Source of the DNA: Escherichia coli
GTDB lineage: Bacteria; Pseudomonadota; Gammaproteobacteria; Enterobacterales; Enterobacteriaceae
Assembly: GCF_048403405.1 (NCBI RefSeq)
Contig: NZ_CP183129.1
Strand: one strand, 5' to 3'
DNA: 64,000 nt
Shown: one piece after another, positions 6,586 to 33,817 of the stretch
How the letters are laid out: each line of letters starts with the position of its first letter
Numbering within the stretch: position 1 is the first letter of the stretch
Notes under the pieces: model-generated
Told to the model about the DNA's origin: nothing
Seen by the model: the letters and a program-made list of their open reading frames with translations, nothing else
Databases searched by the model: none
Made by a program: the position numbers and the translations under genes

Positions 6586-8057
6586 CAGATACAGCGTTAT
6601 CTCCTGAAGAGCAGTTGATCGAGGATATTGCAGGGTTTACTCACGATCCGCTTGGTTATGCCCTCTATGCGTTCCCGTGGGGGGAAGAGGGTACTGAACT
6701 GGCACATGCTACCGGCCCACGTCAGTGGCAGGCTGATGCGTTCCGAGAGATACGTGATCACCTGCAGAATCCAGAGACGCGCTATCAGCCGCTTATGCTG
6801 GCACGCGCTTCTGGTCACGGTATTGGTAAATCCGCATTCATCTCAATGCTGATCAACTGGGGCATGTCCACTTGCGAGGATTGTAAGGTCGTGGTGACCG
6901 CCAACACCGACAACCAGCTACGAACGAAGACCTGGCCGGAAATTATCAAGTGGTCAAACCTTGCTATCACGAAAGACTGGTTTACCTGTACCGCTACCGC
7001 GATGTACAGCAATGACCCTGGGCACGACAAGCGGTGGCGCGCTGACGCAATCCCCTGGTCTGAGCACAACACTGAGGCGTTCGCGGGACTACACAACGAG
7101 CGCAAACGCATCATCGTGGTGTTTGATGAAGCGTCGAACATTGCGGATCTGGTGTGGGAAGTTGCCGAGGGTGCGCTTACGGACGAAGACACCGAAATCA
7201 TCTGGGTGGCGTTCGGGAACCCGACGCGTAACACCGGGCGTTTCCGTGAGTGTTTCCGCAAGTACAAACACCGCTGGAAGTGTGCGCAGATTGACAGCCG
7301 GACGGTGGAAGGCACCAACAAACAGCAGTTGCAGAAATGGGTTGATGACTACGGGGAAGACAGCGACTTCGTTAAAATCCGTGTGCGCGGCATATTCCCT
7401 GATGCATCTGAATTGCAGTTTATTCCTACCGGTCTTACTGACGAGGCAATGAAACGGGTGGTAACTGCTGCGCAGGTGGCACATGCTCCGGTGATAATCG
7501 GCGTTGACCCTGCATACTCCGGTGTTGATGACGCGGTGATATACCTGCGGCAGGGGCTGCACAGTAAGGTGCTGTGGACCGGCAACAAGACCATTGACGA
7601 TCTGATTATGGCAAAGCGTATCGCTGACTTTGAAGACCAGTATCAGGCTGACGCGGTGTTCATCGACTTCGGTTACGGAACCGGTTTGAAGTCAATCGGT
7701 GACGGCTGGGGTCGTACATGGCAACTTGTTCCGTTCGGCGGTGCGTCCACTGACCCGCAGATGCTTAACAAGCGTGGGGAGATGTTCAACTCATGTAAGA
7801 CATGGCTGAGGCTGGGCGGCATGCTGGATGACCAGGAAACAGCAGACGACCTGTCGGCGGCAGAGTACAAAGTTCGTGTGGACGGTAAAATCGTTATCGA
7901 ACCGAAGGAAGATATCAAAGAGCGTCTTGGGCGTTCGCCGGGTAAAGGCGATGCGCTACTGCTGACGTTTGCTTTCCCTGTGTCGAAGCGTCTGCGAATT
8001 CCTGGGCAGCAGAACCAGCAAGGCAAGGCCATCACAGATTATGACCCGTATGCTTAA
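6582..8057 (+). CDS. Terminase large subunit
   Basis: 491 aa with ATPase region (GHGIGKSAF...VVFDEASNI) and C-terminal nuclease-like region, as recalled for large terminases. Confidence 0.85.
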   Translation: MTDTALSPEEQLIEDIAGFTHDPLGYALYAFPWGEEGTELAHATGPRQWQADAFREIRDHLQNPETRYQPLMLARASGHGIGKSAFISMLINWGMSTCEDCKVVVTANTDNQLRTKTWPEIIKWSNLAITKDWFTCTATAMYSNDPGHDKRWRADAIPWSEHNTEAFAGLHNERKRIIVVFDEASNIADLVWEVAEGALTDEDTEIIWVAFGNPTRNTGRFRECFRKYKHRWKCAQIDSRTVEGTNKQQLQKWVDDYGEDSDFVKIRVRGIFPDASELQFIPTGLTDEAMKRVVTAAQVAHAPVIIGVDPAYSGVDDAVIYLRQGLHSKVLWTGNKTIDDLIMAKRIADFEDQYQADAVFIDFGYGTGLKSIGDGWGRTWQLVPFGGASTDPQMLNKRGEMFNSCKTWLRLGGMLDDQETADDLSAAEYKVRVDGKIVIEPKEDIKERLGRSPGKGDALLLTFAFPVSKRLRIPGQQNQQGKAITDYDPYA

Positions 8058-8107
8058 TCCGCTGGTGGGGATAATGTCGTTGATATCCTCTGATGAGGAT
8101 AAAACAA

Positions 8108-8135
8108 AGCCAGCTCATCGGCTGGCTGTTTGTGA
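8108..8135. terminator. Bidirectional terminator hairpin between the large terminase and the minus-strand gene
   Basis: AGCCAGC-TCATC-GGCTGGCT with a T-rich run on the minus strand and GTTTGTG on the plus strand. Confidence 0.4.
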
Positions 8136-8147
8136 CATGTCACGGTG

Positions 8148-8504
8148 TTATTGCTCGCTTAGCTTCTGCTTCAGCAAGTAACCTTCGAGCATCCAGATTT
8201 TGTTTACAGCATTCTGCCGGGCAATCTTCCGACCAATTTCTGCATCAAAGTTTTCCGGGCTTGCACAGGCGCTCTCTCCGGTGACGGTGAAGCCATTCTT
8301 CAGCACCAGTACGCAGAAAGTAAGGAGGTCTGTAGATTTATGCGCTGTCCACGCATCGCCAATGCCCATATTGGCGGCACGAATACCGTCATAAGCAGTA
8401 AAGAAATGCTCTTCAAGAATGATGCTTTCGATATATTGGGGCGTAACTCGCGGTGCCGTTTTGCCTTTCTCAACGATTTCTTTTTCGATTTGCTGGTCGT
8501 TCAT
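8148..8504 (-). CDS. Hypothetical protein encoded opposite to the packaging and head genes (moron-like)
   Basis: 118-aa ORF with RBS AGGTGAG; bracketed by hairpin terminators on both sides. Confidence 0.5.
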   Translation of the reverse strand: MNDQQIEKEIVEKGKTAPRVTPQYIESIILEEHFFTAYDGIRAANMGIGDAWTAHKSTDLLTFCVLVLKNGFTVTGESACASPENFDAEIGRKIARQNAVNKIWMLEGYLLKQKLSEQ

Positions 8505-8511
8505 AATCTCA

Positions 8512-8538
8512 CCTTAAAAAAATGCCCGGCGAACCGGG
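8512..8538 (-). terminator. Putative minus-strand terminator immediately upstream of the RBS of the 8504 gene
   Basis: Hairpin CCCGGTTCGCCGGG followed by TTTTTTT on the minus strand. Confidence 0.4.
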
Positions 8539-8614
8539 AGAACTGGAAGCAATGAGTTATGCCTTCCGTGGCTGTACGGGTTTACAGCATGAAGTCATCG
8601 CAATGGCGTCCTGC

Positions 8615-8659
8615 TGTAAAAAGGGCGGTGATAGTCCTTCAAGGGAAACCATCACCGCC
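8615..8659 (-). terminator. Putative minus-strand terminator downstream of the tRNA
   Basis: 9-bp stem GGCGGTGAT/ATCACCGCC with 18-nt loop, followed on the minus strand by CTTTTTA. Confidence 0.4.
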
Positions 8660-8702
8660 AAGCCCCTGGAACTTCTGGCATCACGGTCCTTAGGCGTGAT
8701 TC

Positions 8703-8779
8703 TGGCGTGGCATGCAGGATTCGAACCTGCGACCAACCGCTTAGAAGGCGGTTGCTCTGTCCAACTGAGCTAATGCCAC
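8703..8779 (-). tRNA. tRNA-Arg (anticodon UCU), phage-encoded
   Basis: 77-nt cloverleaf folded by hand: acceptor GTGGCAT/ATGCCAC, D-arm GCTC-AGTTGGACA-GAGC, anticodon arm ACCGC-CTTCTAA-GCGGT, T-arm GCAGG-TTCGAAT-CCTGC, discriminator G, encoded CCA. Confidence 0.85.
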
Positions 8780-9101
8780 AACGCTGAGAGCACTTAGCCT
8801 GTTAAGGCGCCACACTTTGTCGCGGCTCCATAAATGCTCTCATCGTTGCACCCTCGTCTCTTCCGAGGCGTCACACCGAATCGCCGGGATGGTGAATCCC
8901 CGTGCGCGGAATAAAACCGCTCGACTTGCACATTCCGGCTACCTGGTTCGTTTGCCCGAGCAAGTGAGGGTGCCCCTTAAACGTATCCAGACCGCTATCG
9001 ACGCATGTGCCATACACCGTACTGCTCAAAATAAAAGCTCACCCCACCTGTTCAATTTAACGACAAGCCAGTCAGGTTAATAACCGGAATGAACTCTTTA
9101 C

Positions 9102-9116
9102 TTACCTGAAGGGTAA
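9102..9116. promoter_or_regulatory. Palindrome TTACC-TGAAG-GGTAA (operator-like site 4) upstream of the head-gene operon
   Basis: 15-bp palindrome about 45 nt upstream of TATGTGGTT-N5-GGTAATA and the 9206 start. Confidence 0.45.
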
Positions 9117-9205
9117 TAATTGTGCGTTAAATGTCAACCACCTACGATAAATAAATCATATGTGGTTAAATTGGTAATAATTTAATTGCGTACGGAGTCA
9201 TTGAT

Positions 9206-9412
9206 ATGTGCATGGGTAGCTCACCATCAGTGCCTGCAACACCAGAAGTTCAGGCAGCACCACAGGAGCAGGATGCCGCCGTTGTTGATGCCCGCGACGA
9301 AGAAACACGTCGCCGTCGCGCTGCTGCTGGTCGTAGTTCTACGCTGCTTACCGGTTCTCAGGGCGACACATCAACCGCTAATACCAGCGGTAAAACGCTG
9401 CTTGGTCAGTAA
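9206..9412 (+). CDS. Small Pro/Ala/Arg-rich hypothetical protein preceding the portal gene
   Basis: ATG preceded by GGAG; 68 aa; first gene after the promoter-like module. Confidence 0.4.
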   Translation: MCMGSSPSVPATPEVQAAPQEQDAAVVDARDEETRRRRAAAGRSSTLLTGSQGDTSTANTSGKTLLGQ

Positions 9413-9426
9413 CCGGAGTCATTGAA

Positions 9427-11106
9427 ATGGCGGAAACAACTAAAGAGCGATTGAACAAACAGTTCGCACAACTTGAAAGCGAGCGTCAGTCGTTCGAGCC
9501 GCACTGGCGCGAGTTGAGTGATTACATCAACCCGCGTGGTTCCCGCTTTCTGACTTCTGAGGTCAACCGTAACGATCGACGCAATACACGCATTATTGAT
9601 TCGACCGGGACTATGGCGGCGCGCACTCTCGCCAGCGGCATGATGTCAGGCATCACAAGCCCCGCGCGTCCGTGGTTTCGCCTGGCTACGCCTGATCCTG
9701 AAATGATGGATTATGGCCCTGTTAAGTTGTGGCTTGAGGCGGTGCAGAACCGCATGAACGATATGTTCAATAAGTCGAATCTCTATCAGTCGCTGCCGCA
9801 GTTATACGGAAGCCTCGGCACATACAGCACTGGTGCAATGGCAGTGCTGGAGGATGACGAGGACATTATTCGCACAATGCCATTCCCGATAGGCAGTTAC
9901 TACCTAGCTAACTCACCTCGTGGCAGTGTGGACACCTGTTTTCGCAAGTTCTCTATGACTGTTCGTCAGCTTGTTCAGGAGTTCGGGCTAAATAACGTCA
10001 GCGAATCCGTAAAAAGCATGTGGGAAAGCGGAACCTACGAGAAGTGGATTGAAGTGATGCATTCGGTTTACCCGAACATTGACCGCGATACATCGAAGCT
10101 GGATAGCAAGAACAAGCCATTCAAATCGGTTTATTACGAGGTTGGTGGCGATAACGACAAGTTGTTGCGTGAGTCCGGATTCGATGAGTTTCCAATTATG
10201 GCTCCGCGCTGGGAAGTTAACGGCGAAGATGTTTATGGATCATCATGCCCGGGTATGCTGGCGCTTGGACCTGTTAAGGCATTGCAGCTTCTCCAGAAGC
10301 GCAAGTCGCAGATCATCGACAAAGTGACAAACCCTCCGATGGTTGCCCCTACCACTCTCAGAACACAGAGTGTTTCGTTACTTCCTGGTGGCGTCACATA
10401 CGTAGATCAACTGACTGGACAGGAAGGATTAAGGCCTGTTTATCAGGTTAACCCTAACACTGCGGATTTAATCAGCGACATCCAAGATACGCGGCAGACC
10501 ATCAACAGCGCCTACTTTGTCGATCTGTTCATGATGTTGCAGAACATCAATACCCGCTCGATGCCTGTTGAAGCGGTGATCGAAATGAAAGAAGAAAAAC
10601 TTCTGATGTTGGGGCCGGTTCTGGAGCGTCTGAACGACGAATGTCTTAATCCTCTCATTGACCGCGCTTTCTCGATGATGGTGCGTAAAAACATGCTGCC
10701 GCCACCGCCTGACGCGATGGAAGGCATGCCCCTGAAGGTCGAATACATTTCCGTCATGGCTCAGGCGCAGAAGTCTATCGGCCTGTCCAGTCTGGCGTCC
10801 ACGGTTAACTTCATTGGTCAACTTGCGCAAGCGAAACCAGAAGCTCTCGACAAACTCAATGTTGATCAGGCGATCGATGCATTCGCTGATATGTCCGGAG
10901 TGTCTCCAACCGTCATTGTTCCGCAGGAACAGGTTGAGCAGGCTCGCCAGCAACGGGCACAGCAGCAACAGCAGCAACAAATGATGGCGATGGGAATGGA
11001 GGCGGCACAGGGCGCCAAGACGCTAAGCGAAGCTAAAACTTCGGATCCGAGTGTTTTGTCAGCTATGGCGAATGCAGTTAGTGGTCAGGGTGGGCAATCA
11101 CAATGA
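9427..11106 (+). CDS. Portal (head-tail connector) protein, T7 gp8-like
   Basis: 559 aa, podovirus connector-like size and sequence character; position between terminase and scaffold/capsid. Confidence 0.75.
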   Translation: MAETTKERLNKQFAQLESERQSFEPHWRELSDYINPRGSRFLTSEVNRNDRRNTRIIDSTGTMAARTLASGMMSGITSPARPWFRLATPDPEMMDYGPVKLWLEAVQNRMNDMFNKSNLYQSLPQLYGSLGTYSTGAMAVLEDDEDIIRTMPFPIGSYYLANSPRGSVDTCFRKFSMTVRQLVQEFGLNNVSESVKSMWESGTYEKWIEVMHSVYPNIDRDTSKLDSKNKPFKSVYYEVGGDNDKLLRESGFDEFPIMAPRWEVNGEDVYGSSCPGMLALGPVKALQLLQKRKSQIIDKVTNPPMVAPTTLRTQSVSLLPGGVTYVDQLTGQEGLRPVYQVNPNTADLISDIQDTRQTINSAYFVDLFMMLQNINTRSMPVEAVIEMKEEKLLMLGPVLERLNDECLNPLIDRAFSMMVRKNMLPPPPDAMEGMPLKVEYISVMAQAQKSIGLSSLASTVNFIGQLAQAKPEALDKLNVDQAIDAFADMSGVSPTVIVPQEQVEQARQQRAQQQQQQQMMAMGMEAAQGAKTLSEAKTSDPSVLSAMANAVSGQGGQSQ

Positions 11107-13983: not shown

Positions 13984-14307
13984 ATGGAACTCGTAAACCT
14001 CAAAACCGGCACTGACAGCTACCAGGATGAGAGCGGAGAAGCCAGAACTCGTGATGAATACCCGTGGGGGCTGTGCATCACTCTTAATAACGACACATTG
14101 AATAAGCTGAAGGCGCAACCTCAGGGCGTCGGAACAGAAGTGATGATAACTGCAAAGGCTGTTATTCGAGGCCTGTCTGCCAGAGAAACTGACGATGGTG
14201 TTAATCGCAGCGCCGATCTGCAGATCACTGATATGGCGATCGCTCCTGTTTCCGGGGATGTAGAAAAATCAGCGGCTGAAACTCTGTACGGCAATGGGGG
14301 TGAGTAA
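13984..14307 (+). CDS. Hypothetical virion protein
   Basis: ATG after GCAGGAGTG; about 107 aa; coupled to the next gene (ATGA overlap). Confidence 0.4.
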   Translation: MELVNLKTGTDSYQDESGEARTRDEYPWGLCITLNNDTLNKLKAQPQGVGTEVMITAKAVIRGLSARETDDGVNRSADLQITDMAIAPVSGDVEKSAAETLYGNGGE

Positions 14308-14912
14308 TGGCCTCTGTAGTAGAGATCTGCAATCGTGCGCTGTCCAATATTGGCAATAGCCGCAGCATTAACAGCCTGACGGAAGCCAGCAAGGAAGCGG
14401 GGGAATGTTCGCTGCACTTTGAGGCCTGCCGTGATGCTGTGCTTTCTGATTTTGACTGGAACTTTGCTACCAAACGCGTGGCGCTTGCAGATACGAGCAA
14501 TCCACCGCCTGACTGGGAATATGCGTATCAGTACCCGTCCGATTGTCTGCGCATTACTGAAATTATGCTTCCTGGTGTACGCAATCCAACAGCAGCAATG
14601 CGTGTTCAGTACGAAGTTGGTGCAGACACCAACGGAACAGGAAAATTGATCTACACAGACCAGCCGCAGGCATGGCTCAAGTATGTCTCTCGCGTTACAG
14701 ATGTGAACATGTTTGATGCCATTTTTATGGAGGCGTTGGCTTGGCGTCTTGCGGCAGCTATTAACATGGCGCTGACTGGGAATGCAGACCTCGGTACGTT
14801 TGCCCTCAATATGTACAATCGCGTGATTCTTAGTGCTGGCTCGCATAGCCAGAATGAATCACAGGAACCACAGCCACCGGTTGACGAGTTTACCATTGCG
14901 AGGTTGTCCTGA
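14307..14912 (+). CDS. Putative tail adaptor / tubular protein A-like
   Basis: 201 aa, in the position and size of T7 gp11; call by synteny only. Confidence 0.4.
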   Translation: MASVVEICNRALSNIGNSRSINSLTEASKEAGECSLHFEACRDAVLSDFDWNFATKRVALADTSNPPPDWEYAYQYPSDCLRITEIMLPGVRNPTAAMRVQYEVGADTNGTGKLIYTDQPQAWLKYVSRVTDVNMFDAIFMEALAWRLAAAINMALTGNADLGTFALNMYNRVILSAGSHSQNESQEPQPPVDEFTIARLS

Positions 14913-27310: not shown

Positions 27311-27669
27311 AGCGATCACCTTTGTAGTTAGGTTAATCACCACCGCTGAGACCAATCAGATGGTGGTGAACTGTGCAGAGTTGGTCTTACCGGCTACAAA
27401 GGAACCCGGCGCACCTTTCGGTGCCCCCACACAGCCCACCATAGAATAGGTGCGCTTTACACATAAAAAAACCGCTTATGCGGCATATGTGCCTCTGTAG
27501 TAATCCGGGAGACCAATCCCGGCACTGGATTTTGCCAGTGCCCGATTACTATGGCACAAGAGGAGTGCAATGTAAATTTACCGAAAAGGTAATAATAAAT
27601 GCATAACTCACGTTATTTCAACCCTATATGGTTTGATTTATCCCATTTCAGAAAATACCTGCCTATTTT

Positions 27670-33796: not shown

Positions 33797-33817
33797 TAAA
33801 TAATTGAGTGGGAATGA
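33797..33817 (+). other. guaA: Prophage right junction (attR region) carrying the orphan 3' end of guaA (ATT GAG TGG GAA TGA = IEWE-stop)
   Basis: In-frame stop TAA then ATA ATT GAG TGG GAA TGA; E. coli GuaA ends ...TIEWE (recalled); followed by a strong terminator and then yfgI, the K-12 neighbour of guaA. Confidence 0.45.

Follow-up and report, generated by a model that had tools for sequence, protein, structure and literature searches.

The stretch of Escherichia coli DNA analysed here (64,000 nucleotides (nt) of contig NZ_CP183129.1, referred to below as the window) carries a prophage with a packaging and head module of the phiV10/epsilon15 type (Uetakevirus). As read from a near-identical RefSeq genome, the prophage adjoins guaA and ends at about window position 33,800. 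On the plus strand, terS and terL are followed by the portal and head genes; between them lie two minus-strand features, an open reading frame (ORF) of the gp49/Sf6-gene-66 family and a tRNA-Arg(UCU) gene. The original prediction for this site comprised the tRNA, two terminators downstream of it and a short transcript or attenuator associated with the second terminator. It overlooked a far larger conserved noncoding unit that has the tRNA at its middle and begins about 325 nt upstream. Within this unit, positions 9020-8780 of the minus strand encode a hitherto unannotated, pseudoknotted structured RNA, a prediction that is well supported by comparative analysis. The features of the locus are collected in Table 1.

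The structure model was built by hand on an alignment of 67 diverse copies and a second one of 78. It consists of a conserved core with helices P1, P2, P3', P4 and P5 and pseudoknots PK1 and PK2, followed by a 3' closure domain formed by P6 and P7. In the 78-copy alignment, core pairing was preserved in 98.7% of 2728 cells, and 13 pairs had changed on both sides, in 170 cells altogether. This covariation was matched by none of 500 shuffles, controls with shifted partners paired in at most 45% of cases, and the 67-copy alignment agreed. PK2 takes part in it, with CACC/GGUG replaced by AACC/GGUU in eight sequences. The PK1 strands (GCACAU/AUGUGC) are invariant across the copies, which leaves no room for covariation, and this helix is kept as a candidate pseudoknot. 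In the closure domain, P6 changes from CAAC/GUUG to CAAU/AUUG in some copies, while the P7 helices have many different sequences and average 9.1 base pairs (bp), compared with 6.6 bp when partners are shuffled. P6 ends exactly at the boundary between GUUG and the UGG of the following slot, and the closure domain is flush with the 5' end of the tRNA. From the predicted transcription start to the tRNA junction the RNA folds at a z score of -3.55.

The frequent G-U pairs fit only a minus-strand transcript. Strand-specific compensatory changes together with G-U pairs in seven helices further indicate that selection acts on RNA structure and not on DNA identity alone. A protein-coding core was ruled out by hairpin lengths that vary by non-multiples of three, by the compensatory changes and by the many G-U pairs. 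A long-range pairing of the 5' end with the invariant 19-mer, proposed by RNAalifold, had zero double changes, and the covarying local P1 hairpin was preferred. A covariance model of the core (R1) has a single match in the window, at 8852-9020 (130 bits, E = 6e-45). The leader that precedes the core (9103-9021, minus strand) resembles the P6/P7 closing domain (ACAAC..AAAGCGCAC...GUGCGCUUCCAG-GUGUG) in the window and in Uetakevirus-type loci, and looks as if it were a second copy of that domain placed ahead of the core.

Table 1. Features of the noncoding unit and its surroundings (window coordinates)
Feature	Position	Strand	Details
Candidate sigma-70 promoter	9110..9137	-	-35 TTGACA (9137-9132), 16-nt spacer, -10 TACCCT (9115-9110); predicted, read from the sequence
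Palindrome TTACC-N5-GGTAA	9102..9116		Overlaps -10 and start site; conserved at this promoter in relatives
Palindromes TTACC-N4-7-GGTAA	2133, 2195, 3682, 5957, 9102, 26518, 27578, 29027		
Leader, about 83 nt	9021..9103	-	Predicted start to conserved core; P6/P7-like long hairpin in relatives
Conserved core RNA, 169 nt	8852..9020	-	Covariance model R1, covariation
Core helix P1	9019-9014:9004-8999	-	
Core pseudoknot PK1	9010-9005:8933-8928	-	P1 loop GCACAU with AUGUGC in the 19-mer
Core helix P2	8994-8988:8945-8936	-	
Core helix P3'	8925-8923:8885-8883	-	Three-way junction with P4
Core helix P4	8900-8897:8889-8886	-	
Core pseudoknot PK2	8894-8891:8877-8874	-	P4 loop CACC with GGUG
Core helix P5	8868-8864:8856-8852	-	Loop GAAGAGA
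Invariant 19-mer	8943-8925	-	GGUAGCCGGAAUGUGCAAG (also written GGTAGCCGGAATGTGCAAG)
3' closure domain	8780..8851	-	P6 8847-8845:8782-8780; 12-bp P7 8842-8831:8795-8784; variable insert inside
tRNA-Arg(UCU), 77 nt	8703..8779	-	CCA encoded; fills the slot that holds a tRNA-like domain in most relatives; ARAGORN, Rfam
Hairpin H	8680..8700	-	AUCACG-N9-CGUGAU; conserved after both tRNA and tRNA-like slots
Intrinsic terminator T1	8615..8659	-	Stem 8659-8624 (14 pairs), then CTTTTT, U-run 8622-8618; consensus scan
Read-through spacer T1-T2	8539..8614	-	Small RNA candidate of the original prediction; no promoter, z -1.63, stem changes uncompensated
Terminator T2	8508..8538	-	CCCGG-UUCG-CCGGG + U7, fused to ribosome-binding site AAGGUGAG; consensus scan
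Cargo gene, 118 amino acids	8148..8504	-	N4 Gp49/Sf6 gene 66 family; phrog_322, E 1e-62
Terminator-like hairpin	8108..8127	-	Closes the minus-strand unit, convergent with terL; consensus terminator scan

The RNA corresponds to no known family in Rfam 15, which includes GOLLD, ROOL, tmRNA, Y-RNA-like RNAs and riboswitches: no model matched it at E ≤ 10 within positions 8000-9500. Twelve related loci gave no match at the gathering score, weak partial matches were confined to the slot and the trailer, and scans of the window and 17 related loci at gathering scores and at E ≤ 10 returned nothing for the core, slot or spacer. No earlier description was found in the literature searched, whose coverage largely excluded subscription journals.

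BLAST searches with the noncoding stretch 9020-8780 (minus strand) recovered matches in phages that have no tRNA at this site, with conserved blocks separated by hairpins that carry compensatory changes. The RNA directly follows the repressor gene in PhiR63_1, mEp460, cdtI and Stx2c phages, and it was also found in a Stenotrophomonas phage, in phiV10-like phages, and in P1 and P7 between trnI and ban. The 19-mer occurs in more than 120 IMG/VR contigs, a lower bound, and also in 24 species-representative contigs from Citrobacter, Klebsiella, Kosakonia, Escherichia, Phytobacter, Pseudocitrobacter, Buttiauxella and others. Altogether 1839 of 5426 complete E. coli genomes contain the element, and no annotated feature lies under it among the matches listed for these genomes. 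The R1 model detected one copy per locus in 98 other loci; a second copy on the pR side was seen neither there nor in the window. The RNA is apparently undescribed and widespread in temperate phages of enteric bacteria. Two short contigs of metagenome-assembled genomes labelled Bacillota and Lachnospiraceae (L137, 1.7 kilobases (kb), and L150, 3.1 kb) contain full-length cores with an exact 19-mer, and most likely represent mis-binned enterobacterial phage DNA.

The tRNA itself proved to be as predicted, a well-folded 77-nt molecule with anticodon UCU on the minus strand. ARAGORN called a single tRNA in the window, tRNA-Arg (tct) at 8703-8779 on the minus strand, and the Rfam tRNA model scored 73.3 bits there (gathering score 29, E = 3.9e-14). 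The 3' CCA is encoded, and A20 in the D-loop and C35 are present by inspection. Among eight distinct homologues cloverleaf pairing is kept in 167 of 168 cells, with compensatory changes at 30:42 (GC or CG) and 50:66 (GC or AT); because the stems are kept in this way, the gene is not a pseudogene. It is a real, structurally conserved phage tRNA gene, routine in itself and already known: related tRNA-Arg genes occur in hundreds of phage records, and this one is annotated as tRNA-Arg in RefSeq E. coli genomes, GenBank records, phiV10-like phages and O157 typing phages. Its anticodon and cloverleaf are those of other tRNA-Arg(UCU) genes, such as argN/argO of Stx phages and the host argU, and 64 of its 77 bases are identical to those of E. 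coli argU. Unlike these genes, it occupies a fixed slot in a larger RNA.

The rationale offered for such a tRNA, decoding of the rare AGA and AGG codons, is consistent with codon usage at the level of the prophage. AGA and AGG occur at 8.7 and 6.5 per 1000 codons in prophage ORFs and make up 25% of arginine codons, versus 2.2 and 1.4 per 1000 and 6.4% in the host flank, an approximately fourfold difference. The packaging and head genes that adjoin the tRNA are nearly devoid of both codons, and the demand comes from the tail/injection and early genes. With this enrichment and this source of demand, it is reasonable to suppose that the tRNA supplies an AGA decoder to an AGA/AGG-rich prophage. 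The tally includes an AGA/AGG-rich minus-strand ORF of 242 amino acids at 14121-14846, within the plus-strand structural gene block, which is likely spurious.

Several records have protein calls that overlie the tRNA and the structured RNA or run antisense to them. In the phiV10 record an ORF annotated antisense to the tRNA is spurious. Calls of the 'hypothetical protein' type that are probably mis-annotations include phiV10 2672-2923, mEp460 gp36/gp37, BUCT709 WCS67766.1, PhiR63_1 XSB43258.1 and BUCT554 QQM14145.1. The phiV10 record also annotates a terminator at the place matching window 8108-8127.

When the position after P6 was compared across 68 representatives, tRNA-Arg(UCU) was found in ten. 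In most of the others it is replaced by a domain closed by GUGGUG...CACCAC, often with D-arm-like and T-arm-like hairpins, and the first bases of the window tRNA, GUGG, are common to these tRNA-like domains. The slot varies in length from 77 to over 200 nt. Some slots (L044, L015, L029 and L089) have a canonical T arm (GGUUCGAUUCC) and an ACCA end, many have no recognisable T arm, and neither ARAGORN nor Rfam called a tRNA on the tRNA-like domains. A kissing pair between D-loop-like and T-loop-like hairpins of the common tRNA-like slot was considered and rejected, as its single informative variant (L098) is not compensatory. On the 3' side the slot is followed by hairpin H and then by a strong terminator, T1 in the window. 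Since slot contents vary between conserved flanks, the tRNA is one of several possible occupants of a slot whose place in a larger RNA module is fixed.

This variability, which extends to the ORF behind T2, might also be read as a recombination scaffold, in which conserved flanks let phages swap tRNA and cargo cassettes and the RNA has no function of its own. Such a scaffold would not account for the strand-specific compensatory changes and G-U pairs in the seven helices, and we regard it as very improbable. The 3' trailer of many relatives carries UUGCUGUGUGUAGUCUUUG and a terminator (L089 5548-5658; also L106, L034, L043, L024, L097 and L114). This trailer closely resembles the 3' part of the host small RNA RprA (RF00034, 37.4 bits, E = 0.54, below gathering), and the corresponding box is degenerate in the window (8679-8615).

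Both hairpins with U-runs reported downstream of the tRNA were recovered by the terminator scan, and they have the G+C-rich hairpin and U-run of intrinsic terminators on the strand predicted to be transcribed. The region as a whole contains five hairpin and T-run sites versus 1.9 +/- 1.5 in shuffles. The T1 stem covaries in relatives (GGCGGUGG/CCACCGCC, GGCGGUGAU/AUCACCGCC, GGCGGUACCAG/CUGGUACCGCC), which have an equivalent hairpin and U-run with compensatory stem changes, and T1 is probably the normal 3' end of the RNA-tRNA transcript. T2 is near-invariant. Its stem (8538-8525, CCCGG-TTCG-CCGGG) is followed by CATTTTTTT (RNA form CAUUUUUUU), and, in agreement with the original prediction, its U-run (8522-8516) abuts the ribosome-binding site AAGGTGAG (8515-8508) of the gene whose ATG is at 8504. 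This junction of T2, ribosome-binding site (AAGGTGA) and ATG (window 8538-8502) is kept in at least 19 representative loci, and the ORF behind it differs from locus to locus. It looks like a slot for cargo genes that would be fed only by terminator read-through.

The proposal that the stretch between T1 and T2 yields a discrete small RNA, or that T2 attenuates the gp49-family gene, drew on two terminator-like hairpins bracketing about 80 nt, further stems between them and the lack of an ORF. No ORF is credible there indeed, the only ones overlapping the region being mechanical, and the spacer sequence is kept across 19 related loci. The stem ACAGCA/UGCUGU exists as well, but its significance did not hold: the spacer alone folds at z = -1.63, equalled by 10 of 200 shuffles, and this stem has three independent uncompensated changes and zero compensated ones in the related loci. 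A second spacer hairpin, GGAAG/CUUCC, has one compensated and one uncompensated change. The promoter scan gave no sigma-70-like site in 7900-9600, and none was seen by eye in 8614-8539; a search of 8000-9500 against Rfam gave no match to the spacer at E ≤ 10. As to attenuation, minimum free energy and centroid structures keep T2 intact, no pairing competes with it, its 5' arm has no alternative partner, and no leader ORF was found. Both variants are therefore highly unlikely, and the stretch reads as a conserved read-through spacer leading to the cargo slot.

The unit starts from a candidate promoter that was read from the sequence and lies below the stringency of the promoter scan, with a predicted transcription start near 9103. 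Its TTGACA-N16/17-TACCYT arrangement is kept in Uetakevirus-type relatives. The palindrome that overlaps it is a probable operator for a phage regulator: palindromes of the type TTACC-N4-7-GGTAA occur eight times in the window versus 0.1 expected, mostly at operon starts, and are probably the site of a global phage regulator. They include one site before terS and one between the RNA promoter and the portal operon. Another, TTACC-GAAAA-GGTAA (27578-27592), lies just upstream of a tandem pair of RNAs matched by Rfam on the minus strand (27359-27592), C4 antisense RNA (27359-27446, 78.6 bits) and isrK (27465-27541, 74.7 bits). The same pair is present in mEp460 (L008 206-394) and in L108.

A comparable promoter context was observed across the relatives. 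Nearly every copy of the RNA is preceded by a sigma-70-like promoter flanked by operator-type palindromes, and no fewer than five different immunity types are represented. Of 67 representatives, 34 have a promoter-like site in the 150 nt upstream of the RNA, versus 16% of shuffles and 3% of the downstream control, and the first sizeable downstream ORF is co-oriented in 42 of 56 representatives. For instance, L078 and L024 have an HK022-type pL/oL segment (85% identity over 47 nt, E = 1.5e-10) followed by this RNA, where HK022 has putL. In L116, a phage of the lambda immunity type, the repressor gene (phrog_4) is immediately succeeded by a lambda-type oL/pL that drives the core; a terminator acting in both directions comes next, then a phage gene in antisense orientation and early-left genes oriented like the core. 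In loci of the L116 type the core stands alone, with a terminator hairpin directly after it. The order in mEp460 is cI terminator, operator/promoter, RNA, tRNA-like slot, 10-bp terminator, second long hairpin and first early-left ORF, and the latter shows no arginine-rich N-like motif. In four settings (Uetakevirus-type loci, mEp460, L116 and a Stenotrophomonas phage) terminators stand between the RNA and ORFs of the same orientation. In P1, the core lies within the C1-controlled ban operon, between trnI and the ribosome-binding site of ban.

This layout can be compared with two known antitermination systems. The putL and putR sites of HK022 are cis-acting processive antiterminator RNAs of about 70 nt with two stem-loops, which bind the zinc-binding domain of the RNA polymerase beta' subunit and suppress termination in cis (PMC9378689). 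Like put, the present RNA is a protein-free structured RNA that follows a repressor-controlled early promoter and precedes terminators and early genes. It holds the pL-type position of put, but the P1 copy is not promoter-proximal. In contrast to put, it is 170-240 nt long with five to seven helices and two pseudoknots, and it occurs as one copy per locus carrying a tRNA or tRNA-like cassette, whereas put RNAs come as paired copies after pL and pR. Identity with putL or putR was rejected, as no alignment was significant, scores fell within those of shuffles, R1 found nothing in HK022 and the architecture differs. Matches of 12-16 nt to HK022 that turned up repeatedly are located within the nun ORF and were dismissed as chance. 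The RNA thus works at most like put and is not a put RNA.

Relative to the nut sites of lambda-type phages and the rrn leader, the RNA lies at the map position of nutL, and in many copies the P7 3' strand includes GCUCUU, a boxA-like sequence that is base-paired and covaries. The best boxA match in the window has 4 mismatches in 13 positions, which is the chance level, and the interval from promoter to terminators contains no N-like ORF. A perfect rrn-type boxA (TGCTCTTTAACAA) was found only in L116, L067 and L027, with chance-level matches elsewhere. In these three loci, all with lambda-type operators, it lies some 190 nt from the RNA start (at about 2300-2288 of the minus strand in L116), right after the post-core terminator. 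The RNA does not qualify as a nut site. Dependence on Nus has been reported for the mEp phage collection (PMC11893012).

Our best guess, not proven and held at somewhat less than even confidence, is that the RNA is a leader that helps polymerase to pass terminators in an early operon. It rests on the shared layout of early promoter, RNA, terminators and unrelated, co-oriented genes for which no promoter is visible, which is that of nutL/N and putL. The tRNA is not a free-standing gene; it is an interchangeable cassette in the middle of a noncoding early unit, whose order is candidate promoter with operator-like palindrome (9137-9102), 83-nt leader, core (9020-8852), P6/P7, tRNA, hairpin H and T1. 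Upon derepression the unit would be transcribed, and the core would fold on the nascent transcript and act in cis on the transcribing polymerase. A fraction of transcripts would pass T1 and T2 or, in lambdoid relatives, the terminators ahead of the early-left operon, and the few polymerases past T1 would reach the T2-ribosome-binding site junction and the variable cargo gene, here of the gp49 family. RNase P may cut at the 5' end of the tRNA or tRNA-like domain, freeing the tRNA and the 5' RNA. Of this picture, the analysis established the anatomy, the RNA structure, its distribution and its closeness to promoters; the transcription start, the processing and any influence on termination are predicted. 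The role envisaged is therefore put-like processive antitermination by an unrelated, larger RNA.

Several observations weigh against this proposal. Similarity to put is absent, with no R1 match in HK022 at E ≤ 10 and a local alignment no better than 35% of shuffles, and with one copy in each of the 98 loci there is no putR-like partner. The P1 core is 2.3 kb from Pban, directly before the ban ribosome-binding site, with no terminator seen after it. In L116-type phages the perfect rrn-type boxA just downstream of the core suggests a separate Nus-dependent system. Finally, antitermination leaves the tRNA or tRNA-like slot unexplained.

The slot brings other RNAs into the comparison. GOLLD and ROOL are large ornate RNAs found beside phage tRNAs, and the stable RNAs of T4 lie in its tRNA cluster. 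Like them, the present RNA is phage-encoded, highly structured and linked to a tRNA, with a function that its sequence does not explain; unlike them, it is much smaller, has no Rfam match and resides at early promoters of temperate Enterobacteriaceae phages. tRNA-like 3' processing handles are known from MALAT1-mascRNA, and RNase P matures the C4 RNA of P1 and P7. In a similar way, a structured RNA is here directly followed by a tRNA or mimic that could direct RNase P cleavage. The cleavage is only predicted here, and, in contrast to mascRNA and C4, many slots have no recognisable T arm.

These precedents fit a different explanation, namely a stable phage RNA acting in trans. The RNA gene would end at T1, the slot would serve as an RNase P/RNase Z handle by which the 5' RNA acquires a defined 3' end, the target would be a conserved host component (polymerase, ribosome, nuclease or defence system) and cargo read-through would be incidental. 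A strong terminator closes the module in every lineage examined, directly after the core in L116-type loci, and the end of P6 coincides with the start of the tRNA or tRNA-like helix to the base. The canonical T arm and ACCA end of some slots, and the near-invariant unpaired nucleotides shared from Enterobacteriaceae to a Stenotrophomonas phage, point the same way. Left unexplained are the constant position between a repressor-controlled early promoter and operons of the same orientation, and the P1 copy, which forms part of the ban mRNA leader and has no terminator; neither a target nor a partner protein stands out. A trans-acting RNA accounts better for the slot and the terminator and worse for the promoter-proximal position, and it is compatible with antitermination. 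We regard it as the main rival, possible but held with somewhat less confidence than antitermination.

The compact pseudoknotted fold, the invariant junction nucleotides, the location upstream of terminators and ORFs and the presence of a tRNA or tRNA mimic in cis would also suit a ligand- or tRNA-sensing leader, comparable to a riboswitch or T-box, in which a cellular signal sets read-through at T1 and T2. However, no expression platform overlaps the core, which is separated from T1 by P6/P7, the slot and hairpin H; the downstream genes are mutually unrelated, and no riboswitch or T-box model of Rfam matches. A sensing leader is thus improbable.

If the antitermination proposal is extended beyond this locus, the RNA may found a new class of phage RNAs that reprogram the host polymerase, by processive antitermination or anti-pausing, without a phage protein. 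Such a class would be unrelated to put in sequence and fold, would act at early-left promoters of many temperate phages, among them mEp460-, Stx2c- and phiV10-type phages (P1 being otherwise arranged), and would be modular with the tRNA or mimic that it carries and matures. This broader claim is tentative and less likely than not.

As first given, the finding was an ordinary one, consisting of a known tRNA and two real terminators, with no small RNA. Following the tRNA led to a structured RNA that is well supported and whose possible role at the early promoters of phages can be tested. This RNA is strongly covarying and pseudoknotted. Roughly one in three complete E. coli genomes has it, as do textbook phages, P1 among them, and still it lacks annotation; several records overwrite it with 'hypothetical protein' calls, and an RNA model would improve prophage annotation. 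With its fixed place after early promoters and no visible N-like gene there, the question of how such phages pass early terminators becomes testable. On either reading, the covariance model R1 is ready for use and PK1, P4, P5 and PK2 are defined helices that can be mutated. If the RNA is a stable processed molecule, it would represent a new function of the early phage programme, directed at a conserved target in the host; should it act on RNA polymerase instead, phages would have just two known kinds of antiterminator RNA that need no protein, put and this one.

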